A stretch of 11,617 bases of DNA from a virus. Lineage: Duplodnaviria > Heunggongvirae > Uroviricota > Caudoviricetes. The position numbers and the translations under genes are program-made. Positions 3,441 to 11,617 of this stretch are shown piece after piece. The DNA is taken from IMG/VR virus record IMGVR_UViG_2622736468_000004. The stretch is one strand, 5' to 3'. Position 1 is the first letter of the stretch. Each line of letters begins with the position of its first letter. The notes under the pieces are model-generated. The model saw only the letters and a list, made by a program, of their open reading frames with translations. It made no database searches and was not told where the DNA came from.

Positions 3441-3674
3441 ATGAAATCAAAAGACACCCTAAAGTGGTTCCCTGCGCAGCTTCCTGAAGTAAGAATTATC
3501 CTAGGGGGTGCTGTAGTGGAAGTAGCAAAACAGGGAAGACCTATCAATACCAGAACATTGCTTGATTACATTGAAGGAAACATAAAGAAAAAATCATGGC
3601 TGGATAACAAAGAATTATTACAAACAGCGATATCAGTTCTTAAAGACAACCAAAATTTAAATGGTAAAATGTAA
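3441..3674 (+). CDS. Hypothetical small protein (77 aa from the second ATG; the ORF track gives 88 aa from 3408)
   Basis: ORF 3408-3674. The internal ATG at 3441 is preceded by AAGGA (taaggaatatcttcATG), so 3441 is the favoured start. Basic, lysine-rich product with no family recognised by eye. Confidence 0.45.
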   Translation: MKSKDTLKWFPAQLPEVRIILGGAVVEVAKQGRPINTRTLLDYIEGNIKKKSWLDNKELLQTAISVLKDNQNLNGKM

Positions 3675-3922
3675 TATAATAAACTTACTTTTTTATCATT
3701 TTTCCACTTTAACAACATTTTGCTCCACTTTTCCACGACCAAACAACTTGAAATCTGGTTAAAATAACACGCAACACTATTCTTCTTCCTTGAGTCCGCC
3801 CGGAACTCGAAAAACAAACCGAGTTAAAGCCATTTTTCACAAAATCGATTTTGGGTCTCACCAAAATTACGGGGTTGCATACGCATTCGTTTATTTTCGA
3901 ACGTGTAGGTAATGACTCCAAC

Positions 3923-4426
3923 TTATTGATAGTGTTTTATGTTCAGATAATGCCCGATGACTTTGTCATGCAGCTCCACCGATTTTGAGAACGACAGCGA
4001 CTTCCGTCCCAGCCGTGCCAGGTGCTGTCTCAGATTCAGGTTATGCCGCTCAATTCGCTGCGTATATCGCTTGCTGATTACGTGCAGCTTTCCCTTCAGG
4101 CGGGATTCATACAGCGGCCAGCCATCCGTCATCCATATCACCACGTCAAAGGGTGACAGCAGGCTCATAAGACACCCCAGCGTCGCCAGAGTGCGTTCAC
4201 CGAATACGTGCGCAACAACCGTCTTCCGGAGCCTGTCATACGCGTAAAACAGCCAGCGCTGGCGCGATTTAGCCCCGACATAGCCCCACTGTTCGTCCAT
4301 TTCCGCGCAGACGATGACGTCACTGCCCGGCTGTATGCGCGAGGTTACCGACTGCGGCCTGAGTTTTTTAAGTGACGTAAAATCGTGTTGAGGCCAACGC
4401 CCATAATGCGGGCTGTTGCCCGGCAT
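3923..4426 (-). CDS. insB: IS1 InsB reading frame (expressed as an InsAB' fusion by -1 frameshifting)
   Basis: [53 protein letters not shown]... is canonical IS1 InsB. It overlaps insA in the -1 frame. Confidence 0.9.
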
Positions 4427-4620
4427 CCAACGCCATTCATGGCCATATCAATGATTTTCTGGTGCGTACCGGGTTGAGAAGCGGTGTAAGTGAACTGCAG
4501 TTGCCATGTTTTACGGCAGTGAGAGCAGAGATAGCGCTGATGTCCGGCGGTGCTTTTGCCGTTACGCACCACCCCGTCAGTAGCTGAACAGGAGGGACAG
4601 CTGATAGAAACAGAAGCCAC
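4345..4620 (-). CDS. insA: IS1 InsA (transposition inhibitor / N-terminal part of the InsAB' transposase), 91 aa
   Basis: [42 protein letters not shown]... is the classic IS1 InsA with a CxxC...CxxC zinc finger. Confidence 0.95.
4363..4369 (-). other. IS1 programmed -1 ribosomal frameshift site (A6C slippery heptamer) between insA and insB
   Basis: Plus-strand gtttttt at 4363-4369 is AAAAAAC on the coding strand, inside the insA/insB overlap. Confidence 0.8.
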
Positions 4621-4653
4621 TGGAGCACCTCAAAAACACCATCATACACTAAA

Positions 4654-5565
4654 TCAGTAAGTTGGCAGCATCACCCGACTTTCGAATACGGAATCATTTG
4701 TCACCCCCATTGATATGCAGGGTGTCTTCTTCCTGTATTTTTCGTGAAGGATTTTTACTGCAGCGTTGTTCCAGGTGACCTGATGGTGAATGCGTTTATG
4801 GCTGGCACCCATCAGTGAGATTTTTACGCACGACGGCGCATACATGACGGAGTAAAAACTTTTAACGTAGGTTCCGGAATCCAGATACAGCTCGGTCATT
4901 CCGCCGCTGTTTTTCTGCGTCTGTTTCTGCCCTAACTGGACAGCACCGATCGTCATAAACAATTCACCACAGCGGCCGAGATTCGTGTACGTATTCACAT
5001 CCTCGTTAATGCGCCCCATGAATGAGAACGGTCGATCAACCGAACAGATAAAGCTGTTCATTGCCTTGCGTTTCACCCACGAAGCATGGCCGCCATTGTC
5101 ACCAAGAAAATCCCCGCCCTGCGACATAGCGATGGAAAGAGCAGGTATTGATTCGTAGTACGCCAGCATTTCAGAAAGGATCGCATCCAGTTTCCTTATC
5201 GGAAAATAGGCCTGGTCATAGTTGCGATCCACCCGAAACTGGAACTCGTGATAATCATCATCGAGCTGAATGAAGTATTTACACCCGACCAGTTTTGCCT
5301 GGTCGAAACAGGCATTACGGGCGTAAAAAATTGAGCGGCGGTCACAGAAATTATCGGCTTCGTCAAAACGACTGGCGATATCGGCTTTGGAAAACACCAG
5401 CACCTGTTCACCAAATTCAGCCATGTACTGATGCCGTGTCTTATCTTCATCATCAACAACGATAAAAATTTTCCCGGTATAGCCAGCACGACGCAACGTC
5501 CGGTAAGTCAGAACTTTGTCCGGTCGCCCGTGAGTCAGAATAAAGGCGCAAAAATCATCACGCAT
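4654..5565 (-). CDS. Uncharacterised protein with a GT-A-like signature (tentative), translationally coupled to the upstream ParB-like gene; 3' end disrupted by IS1
   Basis: ORF 4654-5586; the favoured start is ATG 5563-5565 (MRDDFCAFILTHGRPDKV...), directly preceded by GAGGAGGAGG and overlapping the ParB-like stop (ATGCGTGA). The N-terminus has a beta-strand/THGRPD/...IFIVVDDEDKT layout and a later IQLDDDY, resembling nucleotide-sugar transferase DxD motifs. The last 6-7 codons and the stop (4654-4675) lie in IS1 sequence, so the native C-terminus is lost. Confidence 0.55.
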   Translation of the reverse strand: MRDDFCAFILTHGRPDKVLTYRTLRRAGYTGKIFIVVDDEDKTRHQYMAEFGEQVLVFSKADIASRFDEADNFCDRRSIFYARNACFDQAKLVGCKYFIQLDDDYHEFQFRVDRNYDQAYFPIRKLDAILSEMLAYYESIPALSIAMSQGGDFLGDNGGHASWVKRKAMNSFICSVDRPFSFMGRINEDVNTYTNLGRCGELFMTIGAVQLGQKQTQKNSGGMTELYLDSGTYVKSFYSVMYAPSCVKISLMGASHKRIHHQVTWNNAAVKILHEKYRKKTPCISMGVTNDSVFESRVMLPTY

Positions 5566-6349
5566 ATTCCTCCTCCTCACCACCATGCATGATCTCCACC
5601 ATGCGCTGCGTCATCCGGACAAATCCATTTTCAATAGCCTGCTGATAATCAATGATCACCAGCGCCGACTCCTCGAAAAAACACTGAATTTCAGCGGGGG
5701 CGTGAGCGTAATAGTCCGCAATTCTGCTGAAATTAAACACCGTGTGACGTTCTGCCGCACACAGGAGGAATTTCTCAATATCAGGCTCAAGGGACGCCGA
5801 ACGTATCCGGCTGATCAGCTCCTGAGTTTTCGTATCGTCGTACAGTTCACTGATATCCGGTTTACCGCCCGACGGCTCATAAACAGGCGTATCAATTTTC
5901 GTCGTATACGGCTCCTCCTCATTTCCTGTACCGGGCAAAACATCCGTCAACAGTTCATCAATTTCTGTCGGGATGAAGCCTGTCAGGGAGACATCAAAAT
6001 CAGCATTGATTAGGTCCGACAGCTCCATCCGCAACAGATCTTCATCCCAGCCAGCATTCATCGGCAGGCGATTATCTGCCAGGCGGTACGCCTTTTTCTG
6101 CTCATCCGTCAGGCCAGACAGAACAATGACCGGAACAGAATCCATTTTGAGCATTTCAGCCGCCATAACACGACTGTGACCCGCAATAATTTCGCCCTTT
6201 TCGTCAATCAGCACCGGATTAGTCCAGCCGAATTGCTTAATACTTTCTACCAGTTGTGCCACCTGCTCAGTACTGTGCGTCCTGGCGTTGTGCGCATACG
6301 GTGACAATTCTTGTAATGGGCGATAGACTATCTTTAATTTCTCGCTCAT
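5558..6349 (-). CDS. ParB-like nuclease-domain (ParB/sulfiredoxin fold) protein, 263 aa, acidic C-terminal tail
   Basis: ATG at 6347-6349 with AAGG upstream. The N-terminal region (PLQELSPYAHNARTHS...VLIDEKGEIIAGHSRVMAAEML) matches the ParB N-terminal domain, with an A-G-x-x-R-x-x-A-A box corresponding to the ParB GERRxRAA motif. The C-terminus ends in a GGEEEEYA acidic tail. Confidence 0.75.
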   Translation of the reverse strand: MSEKLKIVYRPLQELSPYAHNARTHSTEQVAQLVESIKQFGWTNPVLIDEKGEIIAGHSRVMAAEMLKMDSVPVIVLSGLTDEQKKAYRLADNRLPMNAGWDEDLLRMELSDLINADFDVSLTGFIPTEIDELLTDVLPGTGNEEEPYTTKIDTPVYEPSGGKPDISELYDDTKTQELISRIRSASLEPDIEKFLLCAAERHTVFNFSRIADYYAHAPAEIQCFFEESALVIIDYQQAIENGFVRMTQRMVEIMHGGEEEEYA

Positions 6350-6486: not shown

Positions 6487-7944
6487 TTAGGAGCGCCAAA
6501 AAAAACCTGAAAACAATATAATAACAGGATAAATTTCAAGGCGACCAAGAATCATAGCTATGCACATTAAACATTTTGCAATGTCATTAAGCACTCCGAA
6601 TGACGATGCAGTAGCCCCAAAACCTAATCCCATATTATTAATACATGCAGCCACTGTTGCAAATGATGTAAGAAAATCATATCCCATACCATTTAACACC
6701 AGTATAAAAAACACCGTGAAGAGAGTATAAAGAAAAAAGAAACTCCATACAGACCTCATTACACGATCTGTAACTATCTTCCCTCCTACATTTACACTCA
6801 ACAACGCTCTGGGATGAGAAAGCTGATTTATCTCGTGTTTGCTTTGTTTGAAAAGTATAAGAAATCGAAGTGACTTAATTCCACCACAAGTTGAACCTAT
6901 ACATCCCCCAAAGAAACTTGACAACAGCAAAAACACTATCGTGTGCGTGGGCCAACTTGCATAATCCTGCGTAGCTAAACCATTATCAGTGAGCATGGAG
7001 CTGGCAAGAAAAAACGAATGAATAAAACTTCCATGCAAGTCATACATACCTATATGCCAGACCTGGAAAGAGGTAACAATGATCACCCCTAAGGCTATTA
7101 ACAGAAAGAAACGAAGTTCAATATCTCTGATTAAAGGTTTTATCGTTTTCCTGCTAATAACAATATACCAAAGAGTGAAGTTGAAAGCCGATAGCAGGGA
7201 AAAAGAACCAGCCACCAGCTCAACCAAATAGTTATTAAAATATCCGATACTCTCGCTATGAGTTGAGAAACCACCAAGCGAAACTGTGGAAATCCCGTGA
7301 CAAATAGCATCAAACAAAGGCATTCCTGCAAGTCTATAACAGACAATACAAGCAATACCTAATAAAGAATAAGTTATCCACAGTGTCCGTGACGTATCGG
7401 CCAGGCGGGGAGTGAGTTTGTCATCCTTAAATGGCCCCGGCATTTCTGACTGATAAAGCTTTGCACCACCAATACCCAATAATGGCAATACAGCAACCGC
7501 CAGAACAATAACTCCTAAACCACCTATAAAATTTAACTGTGACCGATAGTACAAATATGCCCGAGGTAATGAACTAACATCATCAATTACAGTTGCTCCT
7601 GTTGTTGTTATTCCAGAAACCCCTTCAAACAGAGCATCAATGAACGTTAAATTAAGTTCTGAGTCAATCCATAAAGGGAATGCACTAATAACAGAAAACA
7701 AAATCCAAAACATTACAATTATAATAAACCCATCACGGGTACGTAATTGAATGCCAGATTTCTTAGTTGTATACCACGCTCCGCCACCAATGCAAAAAAA
7801 TATAACGAAAGTTATAAAGAAAACGAACAGGCTTTTTTCTTTATAAAACAATGCTACAACCATTGGTGGCAACATTGAAAGACTATAGAGCCAAACCAGG
7901 AACCCACACATATGAGTAACAACTCTTACATGAGATGTATTCAT
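6487..7944 (-). CDS. trkG: TrkH/TrkG-family potassium uptake membrane protein (prophage-borne TrkG), 485 aa
   Basis: Polytopic membrane protein with repeated pore-loop motifs (e.g. GITTTGATV, GGFST, NGLATQD, GLGFGAT). From memory, the sequence beginning MNTSHVRVVTHMCGFLVWLYSLSMLPP corresponds to Rac-prophage TrkG of E. coli. The ORF track starts at a TTG (7962, with AAGGTGG upstream); the ATG at 7942-7944 gives the 485-aa form. Markedly AT-rich relative to its neighbours. Confidence 0.8.
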   Translation of the reverse strand: MNTSHVRVVTHMCGFLVWLYSLSMLPPMVVALFYKEKSLFVFFITFVIFFCIGGGAWYTTKKSGIQLRTRDGFIIIVMFWILFSVISAFPLWIDSELNLTFIDALFEGVSGITTTGATVIDDVSSLPRAYLYYRSQLNFIGGLGVIVLAVAVLPLLGIGGAKLYQSEMPGPFKDDKLTPRLADTSRTLWITYSLLGIACIVCYRLAGMPLFDAICHGISTVSLGGFSTHSESIGYFNNYLVELVAGSFSLLSAFNFTLWYIVISRKTIKPLIRDIELRFFLLIALGVIIVTSFQVWHIGMYDLHGSFIHSFFLASSMLTDNGLATQDYASWPTHTIVFLLLSSFFGGCIGSTCGGIKSLRFLILFKQSKHEINQLSHPRALLSVNVGGKIVTDRVMRSVWSFFFLYTLFTVFFILVLNGMGYDFLTSFATVAACINNMGLGFGATASSFGVLNDIAKCLMCIAMILGRLEIYPVIILFSGFFWRS

Positions 7945-8081
7945 ATCTAAATATTCTTTCAATTATAACCACCTTGCTGCAATATTATGATTATACTGTA
8001 TAAAATTTAACTCCTCTTAGATCTTACTTCACTGTTCCTTATGAAACAATCATCAAAATGAATCATATTGTAGTTAAGATT

Positions 8082-8546
8082 TTACTTTAAACACTGCTCG
8101 GTTATGTATTGCTGAGCACCTTCAAGTTGGGCCTGCATCATTACCAGTCGTTCCCGGAGGGTGAAATAATCCCGTTCAGCGGTGTCTGCCAGTCGGGGGG
8201 AGGCTGCATTATCCACGCCGGAGGCGGTGGTGGCTTCCCGCACTGACTGACAGACTGCTTTGATGTGCAACCGACGACGACCAGCGGCAACATCATCACG
8301 CAGAGCATCATTTTCAGCTTTCGCATCAGCTAACTCCTTCGTGTATTTTGCATCGAGCGCAGCAATATCACGCTGACGCATCTGCATGTCAGTAATTGCC
8401 GCGTTCGCCAGCTTCAGTTCTCTGGCATTTTTGTCGCGCTGGGCTTTGTAGGTAATGGCGTTATCACGGTAATGATTAACAGCCCATGACAGGCAGACGA
8501 TGATGCAGATAACCAGAGCGGAGATAATCGCGGTTACTCTGTTCAT
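8082..8546 (-). CDS. Rz: Rz i-spanin (inner-membrane spanin subunit)
   Basis: [60 protein letters not shown]... closely resembles lambda Rz as I recall it. The ATG at 8544-8546 overlaps the endolysin stop (ATGA). Has an N-terminal TM helix followed by a coiled-coil. Confidence 0.9.
8141..8326 (-). CDS. Rz1: Rz1 o-spanin lipoprotein, wholly embedded in Rz in the +1 frame
   Basis: [52 protein letters not shown]... has a lipobox (VVGC) and a proline-rich mature region; ATG at 8324-8326. The embedded architecture is the hallmark of lambda-type spanins. Confidence 0.85.
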
Positions 8547-9040
8547 TGCTGACCCCACAAACAGATTTCACGCTCAATCTCACGACGAGTCATGAGACCT
8601 TTCCATTGCTTACCGCCAGCATATGTCCAGCGACGTAGCTGATCACATGCGCCTTTGATATCGCCCTGGTTTATTTTGCGAAGAAGCGTCGATGTTCTGA
8701 AATTGCCAGCACCCACGTTGTAAACGAATGAGTAAAGAGCGCCGCGCGTTGTTTCCGGTATATCGACTTTGATGTACGGGTTAATTTGTCTGGCGACAGT
8801 GGCAAGGTCTTTATTCAAGAGTGTTTTGCATTCTGCTTTGGTATACGTTTTACCGAGCATGATGTCTTTTCCTGTATGCCCGTGACATACAGTCCATACA
8901 CCAACAATATCTTTGTATGGTATGTAGCTGACACCTTCCAGACCATCGTTACCACTTGGGCCAGTGATTAACACTGATGCTATAGCAATTGCTCCGCCAC
9001 CAATAGCAGCAGCAACGACTTTTCGTAATGATGGAGGCAT
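8543..9040 (-). CDS. R: SAR endolysin (phage-21 R-type, T4-lysozyme/GH24 fold), 165 aa
   Basis: The N-terminal Gly/Ala-rich weakly hydrophobic SAR domain ([21 protein letters not shown]) is followed by the catalytic triad E-x8-D-x5-T ([16 protein letters not shown]). The ATG at 9038-9040 overlaps the holin stop. Confidence 0.9.
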
Positions 9041-9255
9041 TATTCACCTCTCGCAGCCTTGCGCTTATCTTCTTTAATCTTGAAATAAAGGTTTGTCAGG
9101 TACGTCAGCAGGCCAAATACCAGACTACCCAGCACACCGATTGCAGCCCACTGTGACGGAGTTACTCTATCGAGCAACTGTAAAAACCAGTAGCCAGCAC
9201 TGCCTGCGGAGGTGCCGTAGGCAATGCCTGTTGAAATTTTGTCCATGGATTTCAT
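9040..9255 (-). CDS. S: Pinholin (phage-21 S21-type class II holin) with dual-start motif MKSM, 71 aa
   Basis: [71 protein letters not shown] has two TM domains and Met1/Met4 dual starts (antiholin/holin). GGAGGTGA Shine-Dalgarno upstream of ATG 9253-9255. The ORF track's longer 90-aa form (start 9312) lacks comparable support. Confidence 0.85.
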
Positions 9256-9289
9256 AGCCTCACCTCCGCACGGAACGGATGGCATAGTT

Positions 9290-9317
9290 ATTATGTGTAG
9301 GCTTTCAGACACATCAA
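9290..9317 (-). promoter_or_regulatory. Candidate sigma70-type promoter immediately upstream of the holin (minus strand)
   Basis: On the minus strand: TTGATG (-35; plus coordinates 9312-9317), a 16-bp spacer, then CATAAT (-10; plus coordinates 9290-9295), about 35 nt upstream of the S start codon. Hexamer match only. Confidence 0.25.
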
Positions 9318-9356
9318 TCAGAGCCTTAATTGATATATATGCTGGAGACGATGCAA

Positions 9357-9381
9357 TATAAAAAGCTCGCCGTAGCGAGCT
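9357..9381 (-). terminator. Rho-independent terminator (minus strand) between the TolA-like lipoprotein gene and the lysis cassette
   Basis: Minus-strand RNA AGCUCGC-uacg-GCGAGCU (perfect 7-bp GC-rich stem, tetraloop) immediately followed by UUUUUAUA. Confidence 0.55.
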
Positions 9382-9506: not shown

Positions 9507-9902
9507 CTAACCTCGCATGTCAAAGCCAGATTTCTGAAAATCTCTGTAGACTTCCGGATTGTTGAAGGCCGGAAATTTGGCTTTATGAGCTGCGGACTTT
9601 ATCGCTTCGCAATAGGCTTTATCACCGTTACTGGTAGATATTTTTAACGCCGTGCCATCCTGAGAGAATTCCATATGCAACCTGCATTTTTTCCCTTTCC
9701 AGTTATGCGGCTCATCAAGTTTGGCATTAATTGCAGCTCTGATTCCCCGCGCTTGCGCCCCCCATTCATCCTGATCATCCCAGCGTCCTGAACTGCAACT
9801 ACCTGTAGCAGTAGTTTTGTGGCAATCTGAAGGGTGTAAAGGTGTGCATCCCGCAACAAAACCGACCCAAAAAGTCAACATAACGATTTTCTTTAATCCC
9901 AC
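9507..9902 (-). CDS. Prophage lipoprotein with a TolA C-terminal (domain III)-like domain, 131 aa
   Basis: GTG start at 9900-9902 preceded by GAGGAG (an in-frame ATG lies at 9879-9881). Signal peptide with lipobox (FVAGC). The C-terminal ~80 aa (KKCRLHMEFSQDGTALKISTSNGDKAYCEAIKSAAHKAKFPAFNNPEVYRDFQ) follow the TolA domain III pattern as I recall it (TCTLRIKLAPDGMLLDIKPEGGDPALCQAALAAAKLAKIPKPPSQAVYEVFK). Confidence 0.7.
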   Translation of the reverse strand: MGLKKIVMLTFWVGFVAGCTPLHPSDCHKTTATGSCSSGRWDDQDEWGAQARGIRAAINAKLDEPHNWKGKKCRLHMEFSQDGTALKISTSNGDKAYCEAIKSAAHKAKFPAFNNPEVYRDFQKSGFDMRG

Positions 9903-10053
9903 TTCTTGCTCCTCAATCCATTAAAATCTCAGCAATAGTAGTTGTTACGTCCGCCACTGGCTCAGAGCTGACTATCCGCTAAATTTAGCTCAGTGCCGTA
10001 GCTGTGTCAGAACAAACCTAAGCCGAAACCGTTTATTACAAAACAATAAATAT

Positions 10054-10225
10054 CAGGGTTTAAAATCCAGCACCCCATTTTGAAATACTTTATATACTTC
10101 CGGCGAAGGGGGGGCAGGTATATCAGCATTCTTTATCGCATTCATCGCTTCACGACATAAATCGAGGTCTCCACTTTCTCTTTTAACCTCCAGTAGAAGG
10201 CCATTCGGGGCCATATGCATTCTCA
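10054..10225 (-). pseudogene. 3' fragment (C-terminal 56 codons) of a second TolA-C-like gene, 5'-truncated by IS1
   Basis: Manual minus-strand translation of 10225 to 10054 gives ...RMHMAPNGLLLEVKRESGDLDLCREAMNAIKNADIPAPPSPEVYKVFQNGVLDFKP*, which matches the TolA domain III C-terminus pattern (...PLDFKP). The frame is open up to the IS1 boundary at 10226. Not in the ORF track. Confidence 0.6.
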
Positions 10226-10280
10226 GGTGATGCTGCCAACTTACTGATTTAGTGTATGATGGTGTTTTTGAGGTGCTCCA

Positions 10281-10556
10281 GTGGCTTCTGTTTCTATCAG
10301 CTGTCCCTCCTGTTCAGCTACTGACGGGGTGGTGCGTAACGGCAAAAGCACCGCCGGACATCAGCGCTATCTCTGCTCTCACTGCCGTAAAACATGGCAA
10401 CTGCAGTTCACTTACACCGCTTCTCAACCCGGTACGCACCAGAAAATCATTGATATGGCCATGAATGGCGTTGGATGCCGGGCAACAGCCCGCATTATGG
10501 GCGTTGGCCTCAACACGATTTTACGTCACTTAAAAAACTCAGGCCGCAGTCGGTAA
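10281..10556 (+). CDS. insA: IS1 InsA
   Basis: Identical 91-aa InsA sequence to the other copy. Confidence 0.95.
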
Positions 10557-10978
10557 CCTCGCGCATACAGCCGGGCAGTGACGTCATCGTCTGCGCGGAA
10601 ATGGACGAACAGTGGGGCTATGTCGGGGCTAAATCGCGCCAGCGCTGGCTGTTTTACGCGTATGACAGGCTCCGGAAGACGGTTGTTGCGCACGTATTCG
10701 GTGAACGCACTATGGCGACGCTGGGGTGTCTTATGAGCCTGCTGTCACCCTTTGACGTGGTGATATGGATGACGGATGGCTGGCCGCTGTATGAATCCCG
10801 CCTGAAGGGAAAGCTGCACGTAATCAGCAAGCGATATACGCAGCGAATTGAGCGGCATAACCTGAATCTGAGACAGCACCTGGCACGGCTGGGACGGAAG
10901 TCGCTGTCGTTCTCAAAATCGGTGGAGCTGCATGACAAAGTCATCGGGCATTATCTGAACATAAAACACTATCAATAA
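10475..10978 (+). CDS. insB: IS1 InsB reading frame (InsAB' via -1 frameshift)
   Basis: Canonical InsB sequence; the A6C slippery site lies at 10532-10538. Confidence 0.9.
10532..10538 (+). other. IS1 programmed -1 frameshift heptamer AAAAAAC
   Basis: ttaaaaaactc, within the insA/insB overlap. Confidence 0.8.
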
Positions 10979-10993
10979 GTTGGAGTCATTACC

Positions 10994-11617
10994 ACAGAAT
11001 TCAATGCATTAATGGAAAGTGAAAAAGGACAGAGCCAGAACTTGTGGAAATTTGCCGTTTACTCAGGACTTCGTCACGGGGAACTGGCAGCTCTGGCGTG
11101 GGAGGATGTGGATCTCGAAAAGGGAATAGTGAATGTCAGAAGAAACCTGACGATACTTGATATGTTCGGTCCCCCAAAAACAAATGCCGGGATCCGAACA
11201 GTAACACTACTGCAGCCTGCTCTTGAAGCACTGAAGGAGCAATACAAACTGACCGGGCATCATCGCAAAAGCGAAATCACCTTTTATCATCGGGAGTACG
11301 GCAGAACCGAAAAGCAAAAACTGCATTTTGTTTTCATGCCCAGGGTGTGTAACGGAAAACAAAAACCTTATTACTCGGTAAGCAGTTTGGGGGCAAGGTG
11401 GAATGCAGCAGTAAAACGTGCTGGTATTCGCCGCCGTAATCCGTACCATACGCGACATACTTTTGCCTGCTGGCTGTTGACGGCAGGAGCGAACCCGGCA
11501 TTTATAGCCAGCCAAATGGGGCATGAAACTGCGCAGATGGTGTATGAAATTTACGGTATGTGGATTGATGACATGAACGACGAACAGATAGCCATGTTGA
11601 ATGCGCGGTTATCGTAG
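10994..11617 (+). pseudogene. C-terminal catalytic fragment of a tyrosine recombinase (phage integrase family), N-terminus removed by IS1
   Basis: The frame is open from the IS1 boundary (TEFNALMESEKGQ...) to the stop at 11615-11617. Contains catalytic-domain signatures: ...NAGIRTVTL..., HTRHTFACWLL (H-x-x-R), GHETAQM, and the terminal tyrosine region VYEIYGMW. The N-terminal DNA-binding/core-binding domains are absent. Confidence 0.8.

Follow-up and report, generated by a model that had tools for sequence, protein, structure and literature searches.

The S-R-Rz/Rz1 lysis cassette at positions 8082-9255 (minus strand) of the window, the whole 11,617-nt stretch of DNA analysed here, is best explained as an ordinary Rac late-operon lysis module of the phage-21 type, orphaned by a very recent IS1-mediated deletion. 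We put the probability of this explanation, in which intactness is no sign of purpose, at about 80%. In complete relatives, the operon would be driven from a late promoter directly behind a Q-type antiterminator gene; two TolA-domain morons separate Q from S, and Q-modified polymerase would read through their terminators. Two IS1-associated deletions shrank the prophage to ~8 kb, one of them removing both Q and the late promoter. The cassette would remain as a transcriptionally orphaned and probably near-silent passenger, which a moron terminator would insulate from upstream transcription. That it is still intact would reflect a very recent deletion, as gauged by sequence divergence, rather than demonstrable selection.

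Anatomy of the lysis cassette

The four-gene anatomy proposed in a first-pass annotation of this DNA was recovered in full on the minus strand, with family matches in Pfam far above chance for every gene. S (9040..9255, 71 aa) is an S21-type class II holin, or pinholin (PF04971, 'P21 holin S', E=2e-35, profile positions 1-63 of 64; holin in PHROG). R (8543..9040, 165 aa) is a signal-anchor-release (SAR) endolysin with a GH24 lysozyme domain (PF00959, E=2e-45). The inner-membrane spanin subunit is Rz (8082..8546, 154 aa; PF03245, E=5e-53; PHROG 13 over its full length), and the outer-membrane lipoprotein subunit is Rz1 (8141..8326, 61 aa; PF06085, E=1e-18). The couplings that had been described between these genes can be read directly: the stop codon of S and the start codon of R have one base in common (TAATG), and the R stop and Rz start overlap by four (ATGA). 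Rz1 (8326-8141) lies wholly within Rz (8546-8082) in a different frame. RefSeq uses the names essD and rrrD for genes of this cassette.

On sequence criteria, namely family, dual start and two transmembrane domains (TMDs) with a charged tail, S qualifies as an S21-type pinholin. The MKSM dual start noted previously is present: the N-terminus reads ATG AAA TCC ATG (M1-K-S-M4), encoding the same residues as in phage 21, with a GGAGG Shine-Dalgarno sequence at 9267-9263. The second start, at 9246, predicts a 68-aa holin beside a 71-aa antiholin. Within TMD1 (residues 8-26), 12/19 residues are Gly, Ala, Ser or Thr; TMD2 forms a hydrophobic peak over residues 33-58, and a charged C-terminal tail of 13 residues is also present. 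S is identical to the essD-annotated copy of the FORC_081 Rac prophage (WP_000839565). Its near-identity to S21 suggests that it would form small heptameric pores that depolarise the membrane without releasing a cytoplasmic endolysin (PMC9636201). A stem-loop governing start choice was sought in the S leader and start region (9300-9225), where folding was no better than in shuffled sequences (z=-0.59).

R resembles the R21/RrrD type of SAR endolysin in predicted fold, catalytic triad and SAR segment. The Glu-x8-Asp-x5-Thr triad, reported earlier, is present as E35/D44/T50. Matches to PDB 4ZPU (RrrD; E=9e-111) and 3HDE (E=3e-110) cover residues 1-165. In the 19-residue SAR segment (residues 8-26; Gly/Ala/Ser/Thr 11/19), the sole difference from 4ZPU is residue 8, which is V here and A in RrrD. 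Rz has an N-terminal TMD at residues 1-25 as well as Cys99 and Cys152, while Rz1 has a VVGC lipobox with Cys20, a further Cys29 and a penta-proline run (P32-P36). Together, these features fit a two-component embedded spanin.

If the cassette were expressed, lysis would be expected to follow the course described in the S21/R21 and lambda spanin literature (PMC9636201, PMC5295617). The S68 pinholin would build up in the inner membrane, held back by the antiholin S71, which is translated from the first start, until small pinholin pores collapsed the proton-motive force. The SAR endolysin, tethered to the membrane up to this point, would be freed by the collapse to refold in the periplasm and cut the cell wall. 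In a last step, the Rz/Rz1 spanin would fuse the inner and outer membranes.

The cassette is intact at the level of open reading frames, with one caveat. Its one private change is the lineage-specific Rz1 V30G (window position 8238): the 31-mer with the G allele occurs in 0/5426 complete E. coli genomes, and the T-allele 31-mer at 5550 places. Rz residue 61 is I here and V in phage 21, 683R6 and some Rac copies. One could argue that the cassette is intact in looks only and that Rz1 V30G, Rz V61I or both have already impaired its function, since V30G is private and sits beside the disulfide Cys29, and since lambda Rz V61A is lysis-defective (PMC5295617). However, V30G falls within an Rz1 linker that is tolerant in lambda, where (Gly-Ser)3 in place of residues 25-30 leaves lysis unharmed (PMC5295617). 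The change from Val to Ile is conservative, and the exact Rz protein is also encoded in prophages that keep terminase, portal and head genes. Impairment of this kind is highly unlikely.

A Rac remnant shaped by IS1

The window is 100% identical to CP014197.1, a genome named E. coli MRE600 in a paper. This match came from looking up the exact Rz protein; a search with the whole window among complete E. coli genomes gave no record with 80% or more coverage at a single place, and a look-up of the TAGT-IS1 fusion open reading frame had no result. The order there is ttcA-int'-IS1-tolA'-S-R-Rz-trkG-ParB-TAGT-IS1-ynaE. Judging from its gene content and position, the window represents what is left of a Rac prophage next to ttcA. 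The ttcA gene adjoins the integrase fragment in two loci, L014 and L015 (the latter being the CP014197.1 locus). This fragment, the 3' half of the Rac integrase gene intR (10995..11617, plus strand; PF00589), aligns to the 3' end of FORC_081 intR; its open reading frame, from 11012, encodes a C-terminal fragment of 201 aa, IS1 having truncated the gene at 10994/10995. Directly downstream of Rz is trkG (6487..7962, minus strand; PF02386, E=5e-145), a Rac-borne K+ transporter gene. The truncated integrase and the lack of head, tail and early genes in the window, both noticed at first pass, were confirmed.

Two IS1 copies, whose ends were both read, mark the missing parts. The first (10227..10994, plus strand, 768 bp) stands at a deletion junction: it has no 9-bp target duplication at its flanks, and these map to positions 3464 and 20001 of the FORC_081 Rac locus, so that ~16.5 kb is missing. 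The deletion took xis, recET, the repressor region, the replication genes, a Q-type gene and a candidate pR'. The second copy (3909..4676, minus strand) is inverted relative to the first and also lacks a target duplication. It truncates the 3' end of a TAGT-like gene, and the terminase-to-tail region is deleted; relatives carry terminase, portal and head genes from here on. A composite transposon formed by the two inverted copies was considered and rejected, as target duplications are missing on the inner and outer flanks alike and the flanking DNA is colinear with Rac.

Loss of the candidate late promoter

The first-pass annotation described a promoter-like site ahead of the cassette instead of an obvious Q-dependent late promoter. 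Relatives give a different picture. In FORC_081, a Q-type gene ends at 18701; its product is a DUF1133 protein with a faint Phage_antitermQ match, and the Q-type DUF1133 gene is annotated as Q in phage 683R6. A candidate pR' at 19072-19101 is a 10/12 promoter-like consensus match that would mark the position of the late promoter, and it is followed by a hairpin and T-run at 19129-19148. The Q-type gene and candidate late promoter are thus found ~1.9 kb upstream of S in relatives. Neither is present upstream of S in the window, where the DNA runs into IS1 at 10227, because the IS1 junction maps to FORC_081 position 20001, past both. The Q-type gene and candidate pR' were thus deleted by IS1. 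The Rac relative has no tRNA genes in the interval from Q to S, in contrast to phage 21 and 683R6. The latter phage shares the Q, S-R-Rz and trkG, with tRNAs at the place that the morons occupy here.

Morons, terminator and promoter-like hexamers

Morons between Q/pR' and S are self-contained, with their own promoter-like site and terminator, and Q-modified polymerase reads through them in lytic growth. Two such genes lie upstream of S in the window, both on the minus strand. The nearer one (9507..9902; PF06519, E=1e-14; PHROG 5772) encodes a lipoprotein with a TolA C-terminal domain, labelled 'cell envelope integrity TolA C-terminal domain-containing protein' in RefSeq. The other is the 3' fragment of a second tolA-like moron (10053..10226; PF06519, E=3e-11) whose first ~85 codons were removed by IS1; the full 142-aa gene is at 19746-20174 in FORC_081.

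Between the nearer moron and S lies an intrinsic terminator (9381-9357, minus strand), identified by folding. It has a 7-bp stem with five G-C pairs, a UACG loop and a U-tract (-13 kcal/mol, z=-4.4; 0/200 shuffles fold as well). The strong terminator reported previously is therefore real, but it is not the cassette's own: the hairpin is found 125 nt downstream of the TolA-domain lipoprotein gene and ends that moron. Its sequence is identical in the FORC_081 Rac prophage and phage mEp460_ev081. The hairpin was also considered as the tR' of the late operon and rejected, given that it follows the moron and that the candidate pR' and terminator of relatives are located 1.7 kb further upstream.

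Ahead of S are sigma-70-like hexamers, TTGATG-16-CATAAT (9317-9290, minus strand; 9/12 consensus positions), placed ~25-30 nt upstream of the S start. These had been put forward as a possible promoter. Although the hexamers are present, sites of this 9/12 type are no more frequent than chance allows, with eight in the 2.4-kb region against 4.4 +/- 2.4 in shuffles, and the match provides no evidence of function. The same hexamer sequence is conserved in complete prophages and in the viable phage mEp460_ev081. Since it occurs in a viable phage and in prophages bearing Q, terminase and head genes, it can hardly be a strong constitutive promoter there, which ahead of S would be lethal to lysogens.

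The whole block of moron, terminator, hexamers and S21-type holin gene is found elsewhere. In the late region of mEp460_ev081 it is matched at 96.9% identity over 1.74 kb, from ~290 nt upstream of the tolA-like gene through S, with a different Q upstream. The moron-to-S block also occurs in Rac-type prophages in which Q, terminase and head genes are retained.

Is the cassette kept by selection?

An intact lysis module in a defective prophage invites the suggestion, made at first pass, that it is maintained by selection. In this domestication scenario, the cassette would have its own sigma-70 promoter at 9317-9290 and its own terminator, and would be selected for programmed lysis, vesicle release or toxin release. 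The four intact genes, the suitable spacing of the hexamers from the S start and the low long-term dN/dS are all in keeping with it. There is also a precedent in K-12: for the S-R-Rz/Rz1 operon of prophage DLP12, both expression and an effect on vesicle production and biofilm have been reported (PMC7918800). Set against this are the chance-level hexamers and their presence in a viable phage and Q-bearing prophages, the moron's ownership of the terminator, and several further observations.

The first concerns regulation. Beyond the Shine-Dalgarno sequence and start, the region upstream of S has no homology to the DLP12 regulatory region. Regulation of the DLP12 kind, through a Q-type factor, RpoE and Hha, is therefore not transferable to this cassette. 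No host-controlled promoter or regulatory region of that kind was found, the 9/12 hexamers being the sole candidate, and no Rfam family matched anywhere in the window at gathering thresholds, so that no known regulatory RNA lies near the cassette.

The second concerns time. Over a 5,551-nt block, identity is 99.8-99.9% with Rac-type prophages in which terminase, portal and head genes remain. The remnant has only three private substitutions in this block, and the one within the cassette changes an amino acid in Rz1. Disabling changes make up 6.4% of possible substitutions, which leads to an expectation of ~0.04 disabling substitutions in the cassette on this lineage. Intactness consequently needs no selection. 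The divergence is too small for it to be informative.

The third concerns relatives. The trkG gene was found in 1539/5426 complete E. coli genomes, and a trkG-linked, near-complete cassette in only 692/1539 of the trkG-carrying genomes, counts that are not phylogenetically corrected and whose trkG-only genomes probably include a disproportionate share of K-12 derivatives. In the sampled genomes, the cassette's neighbour is far more widely kept than the cassette itself. Disabling mutations in relatives had been named beforehand as grounds for abandoning the idea of selection, and they were found. At least four different insertion sequences interrupt the cassettes of relatives, in addition to the K-12 deletion: IS3 and IS2 in rrrD, IS903B in the holin gene, and ISEc36 inside the cassette of relative H121, where rrrD is annotated as two pieces. 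One relative has a frameshifted Rz, and the K-12 Rac cassette is reduced to an Rz fragment and Rz1. Relatives have therefore lost or disrupted the cassette in several ways yet kept trkG, and on these uncorrected counts, retention and integrity of the cassette among them show no excess over neutral expectation.

Compared pairwise with phage 21, 683R6 and DLP12, the cassette has a low dN/dS (0.03-0.56). This points to purifying selection on the module over a longer history, which includes life as an active phage, and is silent on the remnant branch. Taken together, domestication is quite unlikely.

A weaker form of the idea is that the cassette is transcribed at a low level. Weak transcription may arise from the 9/12 hexamers, or from read-through from the moron promoter or IS1, and by analogy with DLP12 the cassette may have a low-level host role like the one reported there. 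The more specific proposal that low, regulated transcription, from the hexamers or through terminator read-through, leads to cell-wall turnover, vesicles or content release in MRE600 is very unlikely. If true, it would provide a second, independently kept host-serving lysis module with a different control region, which would be incremental beside DLP12.

A possible reservoir for incoming phages

The cassette could also matter to phages rather than to the cell. Silent in its host, it would be available to incoming lambdoid phages, which could recombine with it and gain or repair S, R and Rz/Rz1. Hundreds of lambdoid phages match the cassette over 1.1-1.3 kb at 92-98% nucleotide identity, and mosaic boundaries are found at the S start and just past the S end. 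In addition, lambda has swapped R and Rz for the DLP12 copies by homologous recombination and stayed viable (PMC3945230). Nevertheless, recombination is an outcome of homology and not a reason for retention by the host, and no recombinant from this particular locus was identified. Such a role is conceivable, at odds clearly below even.

Under the preferred reading of a recently orphaned Rac module, the locus is a clean textbook case of IS1-mediated deletions whittling down a lambdoid prophage. It also illustrates that a domestication reading of an intact-looking lysis cassette in a remnant needs a divergence-based null. A standard strain for preparing ribosomes, E. coli MRE600 harbours a pinholin/SAR-endolysin/spanin set that is complete but lacks a promoter, and this set could be rescued through recombination with incoming lambdoid phages. 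Beyond correct annotation, the importance of the locus is small.

Comparison with known systems

The biology of the cassette itself is already known. The cassette of phage 21 has the same four genes, order, overlaps, MKSM dual start, E35/D44/T50 triad and embedded Rz1, with 94% nucleotide identity over 1.14 kb and seven (S), three (R), 12 (Rz) and five (Rz1) residue differences. The Rz and Rz1 C-termini differ. In phage 21, the DNA ahead of the cassette holds Q21, pR', a terminator and two tRNA genes, whereas here homology ends ~40 nt upstream of S, and TolA-domain morons stand there without Q and pR'.

The DLP12 cassette of K-12 (essD-rrrD-rzpD/rzoD) is of the same type, also lies in a defective prophage and likewise shows 94% nucleotide identity, with four (S/EssD), three (R), 15 (Rz) and six (Rz1) residue differences. 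In the literature, it is the precedent for a module of this kind serving its host (PMC7918800). However, it belongs to another prophage at another locus with other upstream DNA (nmpC::IS5), and it has kept the Q-type gene quuD upstream, while the remnant described here has no Q.

Lambdoid morons between Q and S offer a further parallel: a gene with an upstream promoter-like site and its own terminator, located between Q/pR' and S. The module here moves between phages with different Q genes, and its cargo is a pair of TolA C-terminal-domain proteins (PHROG 5772).

The Rac prophage of K-12 has in common the integration site at ttcA, the integrase and the ynaE/ydfK right end. The order rz-trkG-ynaK (ParB-like) is also shared, with rzpR'-rzoR-trkG-ynaK in K-12 and a matching order in FORC_081 Rac. 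The two remnants differ in what was kept. K-12 Rac retained the early region (recET, kilR, racR, ydaS-W) without S, R and the 5' part of Rz, whereas the remnant in MRE600 lost the early region and kept the whole cassette.

The lysis cassette and its predicted action

The lysis cassette (8082-9255, minus strand) comprises S (9255-9040; 71 aa, N-terminus MKSM), R (9040-8543; 165 aa), Rz (8546-8082; 154 aa) and Rz1 (8326-8141; 61 aa), the last lying fully within Rz in a different frame. S and R meet at TAATG, with one base common to the S stop and the R start, while the R stop overlaps the Rz start by four bases (ATGA). All four proteins match their expected Pfam families well over threshold (S: PF04971, 'Bacteriophage P21 holin S', E=2e-35; R: PF00959, E=2e-45; Rz: PF03245, E=5e-53; Rz1: PF06085, E=1e-18), with PHROGs in accord in each case. 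R carries the catalytic residues E35, D44 and T50, its residues 8-26 include 11 Gly, Ala, Ser or Thr out of 19, which fits a signal-anchor-release (SAR) domain, and the structures 4ZPU (RrrD) and 3HDE match it over its full length (E ~1e-110). Rz has an N-terminal membrane segment plus Cys99 and Cys152, and Rz1 has a lipobox Cys20, Cys29 and a P32-P36 stretch. The four intact, coupled lysis genes described in the first-pass annotation are therefore borne out, and the cassette belongs fully to the S21, R21 and Rz-Rz1 families.

If transcribed, the cassette should act like that of phage 21 (lysis mechanism: PMC9636201; spanin: PMC5295617). The 68-residue pinholin and 71-residue antiholin would build up in the inner membrane, and triggering would open small heptameric pores and thereby collapse the proton-motive force. 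The membrane-tethered SAR endolysin would then be freed, refold to its active form and break down peptidoglycan, and the Rz/Rz1 spanin would disrupt the outer membrane via membrane fusion.

A Rac remnant shaped by IS1

The locus is the Rac prophage site. The whole window (11,617 bases) is 100% identical to CP014197.1, named in a paper as the E. coli MRE600 genome. A second assembly, GCA_901482365.1, matches the window at 99.99% identity. An identical Rz protein is encoded in two records that share the complete architecture of the window, and the arrangement is found in one piece in no genome of the RefSeq complete E. coli set. In CP014197.1, the gene order is ttcA, a 201-aa integrase fragment, IS1, a tolA-like fragment, a TolA-C lipoprotein gene, S, R, Rz, trkG, a ParB-like gene, a TAGT-like glycosyltransferase gene, IS1, ynaE, an IS66-family element, uspF and ompN. 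The Rac order in E. coli K-12 is rzpR (a pseudogene), rzoR, trkG and ynaK, and in E. coli FORC_081 it is intR-xis-ralR-recT-recE-...-Q-type gene-tolA-like-TolA-C lipoprotein-essD-rrrD-Rz-trkG-ParB-TAGT-terminase.

FORC_081 also retains a candidate late promoter. Its Q-type gene, which ends at position 18701 of the Rac locus (L003), is a DUF1133 family member that also matches Phage_antitermQ faintly, and the counterpart in phage vB_EcoS-683R6, in a region of ~90% nucleotide identity, is annotated as antitermination protein Q. A promoter-like site (19072-19101, 10/12 positions) is followed by a hairpin and T-run (19129-19148), and from its sequence we infer that 19072-19148 is a candidate for the classical arrangement of a phage late promoter (pR') and terminator. 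Two TolA-domain genes come next, and S starts at 20972, so that the candidate promoter lies ~1.9 kb upstream of it.

In the window, the flanks of the right-hand IS1 (10227-10994), which lacks a 9-bp target duplication, map to FORC_081 positions 3464 and 20001, so ~16.5 kb is missing. Among the sequences lost are the excisionase, recET, the regions for immunity and replication, and both the Q-type gene and the candidate late promoter. At the second, inverted IS1 (3909-4676), also without a target duplication, the deletion extends from the 3' end of the TAGT-like gene as far as the prophage right end, a region in which relatives encode terminase, portal and head proteins. The earlier reading that the cassette has a possible sigma70 promoter instead of an obvious Q-dependent late promoter is thus not supported, as relatives have a Q-type gene and candidate pR' upstream that were deleted here at IS1.

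The inverted IS1 pair brackets a 5.55-kb trkG-plus-lysis block in a composite-transposon-like layout. A composite transposon was rejected because the outer flanks are colinear with Rac and 9-bp target duplications are absent; two IS1-adjacent deletions are simpler.

Other parts of the remnant are also recognisable. An IS66-family element (ISEc22-like) with three ORFs occupies 1-2553, and next to it the source genome has a second, partial copy, which lies just within the right end of Rac and close to ynaE/ydfK and uspF. At 4677-6349, a ParB-N-domain protein (263 aa) overlaps the TAGT-like glycosyltransferase (PF20691; PHROG 842, 'beta-glucosyl-HMC-alpha-glucosyltransferase'), whose last codons are supplied by the IS1 end. 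This pair lies directly upstream of the terminase genes in complete Rac-type prophages, a position that suggests a DNA-modification module.

The upstream region and expression state

The hairpin at 9381-9357 (minus strand; 7 base pairs, UACG loop, U-tract) is a convincing intrinsic terminator, with a free energy of -13 kcal/mol (z=-4.4) that none of 200 shuffles equalled. The TolA-C-terminal-domain lipoprotein gene (9902-9507, minus strand) ends 125 nt upstream of it and is preceded by a promoter-like site (10010-9982). Together, these have the layout of a moron, a stand-alone gene inserted in a late operon. The cassette's "own" terminator is thus real, yet is an ordinary part of a mobile module, 3' of the TolA-C gene. 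The proposed sigma70 promoter (TTGATG-16-CATAAT, 9317-9290, minus strand) matches only 9/12 positions and does not rise above chance against shuffles: the surrounding 2.4 kb holds 8 comparable sites, against 4.4 +/- 2.4 in shuffled sequence.

Phages carry the same module. Phage mEp460_ev081 shares a block that begins ~290 nt before the tolA-like gene and ends with S; over 1.74 kb it shows 96.9% identity to FORC_081 Rac, and within it the segment made up of moron and leader is, on its own, 99.8% identical to the window. In this phage, the block lies 3' of a different Q gene and is followed by an endolysin and a downstream ORF that differ too. The Rac-type Q gene occurs together with S-R-Rz and trkG in phage 683R6, with tRNA genes at the Rac moron position. 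As the module is carried by phages and complete prophages, the terminator and hexamers are ordinary parts of it and not acquisitions of a domesticated cassette. Lysogens with identical sequence ahead of S must keep S silent, so we infer that the hexamers cannot be a strong constitutive promoter.

In both Rac-type prophages and mEp460_ev081, two TolA C-terminal-domain genes (PHROG 5772) separate the Q-type gene from S. In the window, one encodes a predicted lipoprotein (9507-9902) and the other (10053-10226) is cut by IS1. Speculatively, a periplasmic TolA domain III might serve as a decoy for TolA-dependent colicins or filamentous phages.

This genome has lost the natural driver of the cassette, which is the action of Q in cis at its promoter. 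Q antitermination requires the Q target site to lie at the promoter, so the Q proteins of other prophages cannot substitute. With Q and promoter lost, and the moron terminator between upstream transcription and S, silence or weak read-through is most likely. Given its 92-98% identity to hundreds of lambdoid phages, the cassette could also be a recombination substrate, as the DLP12 R and Rz genes are for lambda (PMC3945230).

Intactness as expected without selection

The first-pass annotation proposed that selection maintains the intact cassette. However, the 5,551-nt inter-IS1 block is 99.8-99.9% identical to its counterpart in Rac-type prophages whose terminase, portal and head genes remain, and compared with six relatives it has only three private substitutions, one of them in the cassette. 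When all 3,522 single cassette substitutions were enumerated, 6.4% were disabling (a stop created, a stop removed or a start codon destroyed). With ~0.6 cassette substitutions expected on the lineage, ~0.04 would be disabling, and an intact cassette is the neutral prediction. In pairwise comparisons with phage 21, 683R6 and DLP12, dN/dS is low (0.03-0.56), which reflects the module's long history, including life in active phages, rather than the remnant branch.

The private cassette substitution, at 8238, changes Rz1 codon 30 (V30G) and is synonymous in Rz. Of 5,426 complete E. coli genomes, none contains the G-allele 31-mer, whereas the T-allele control occurs at 5,550 places in 3,958 genomes. 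V30G falls in a linker, and in lambda replacement of Rz1 residues 25-30 by (Gly-Ser)3 leaves lysis intact (PMC5295617), so the change is probably tolerated. It is the type of change expected under relaxed constraint, although a single event proves nothing either way.

Relatives provide the outcome named in advance as refuting selection, namely disabling mutations. Insertion sequences interrupt the cassette in 7 of the 60 best matches; for three of these, annotation confirmed IS3 and IS2 at different sites within rrrD and IS903B within the holin gene. In a further genome, H121, ISEc36 lies in the cassette and rrrD is annotated as two pieces. From K-12 Rac, S, R and the 5' portion of Rz are gone. 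In E. coli ECZP248, a 1-nt deletion in the C-run of Rz/Rz1 (~10110 of locus L008, window ~8195) is annotated as a frameshift; its trkG is likewise annotated as frameshifted, and both could reflect either true decay or assembly errors at homopolymers. Such varied lesions show that the cassette has been lost repeatedly and independently while trkG was kept. The trkG gene (6487-7962) is present in 1,539 of the 5,426 genomes, nearly always at >=99% identity, whereas a near-complete cassette is linked to it in only 692, counts that ignore phylogeny and in which K-12 derivatives are probably over-represented. This suggests that the cargo kept by Rac remnants is trkG rather than the cassette.

Comparison with known systems

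In summary, a known element was annotated correctly and its significance over-read; on present evidence, the cassette falls outside the class of domesticated lysis modules. It most closely resembles the phage 21 cassette, the K-12 DLP12 module (essD-rrrD-rzpD/rzoD) and Rac itself. For a lysis operon in a defective prophage, DLP12 is the published case in which effects on the host have been reported, as has control by a Q-type factor together with RpoE and Hha (PMC7918800). Unlike DLP12, the remnant lacks a Q gene, and its upstream region has no homology to the DLP12 control region. From the annotated phage 21 proteins, it differs by 7 residues in S, 3 in R, 12 in Rz and 5 in Rz1.
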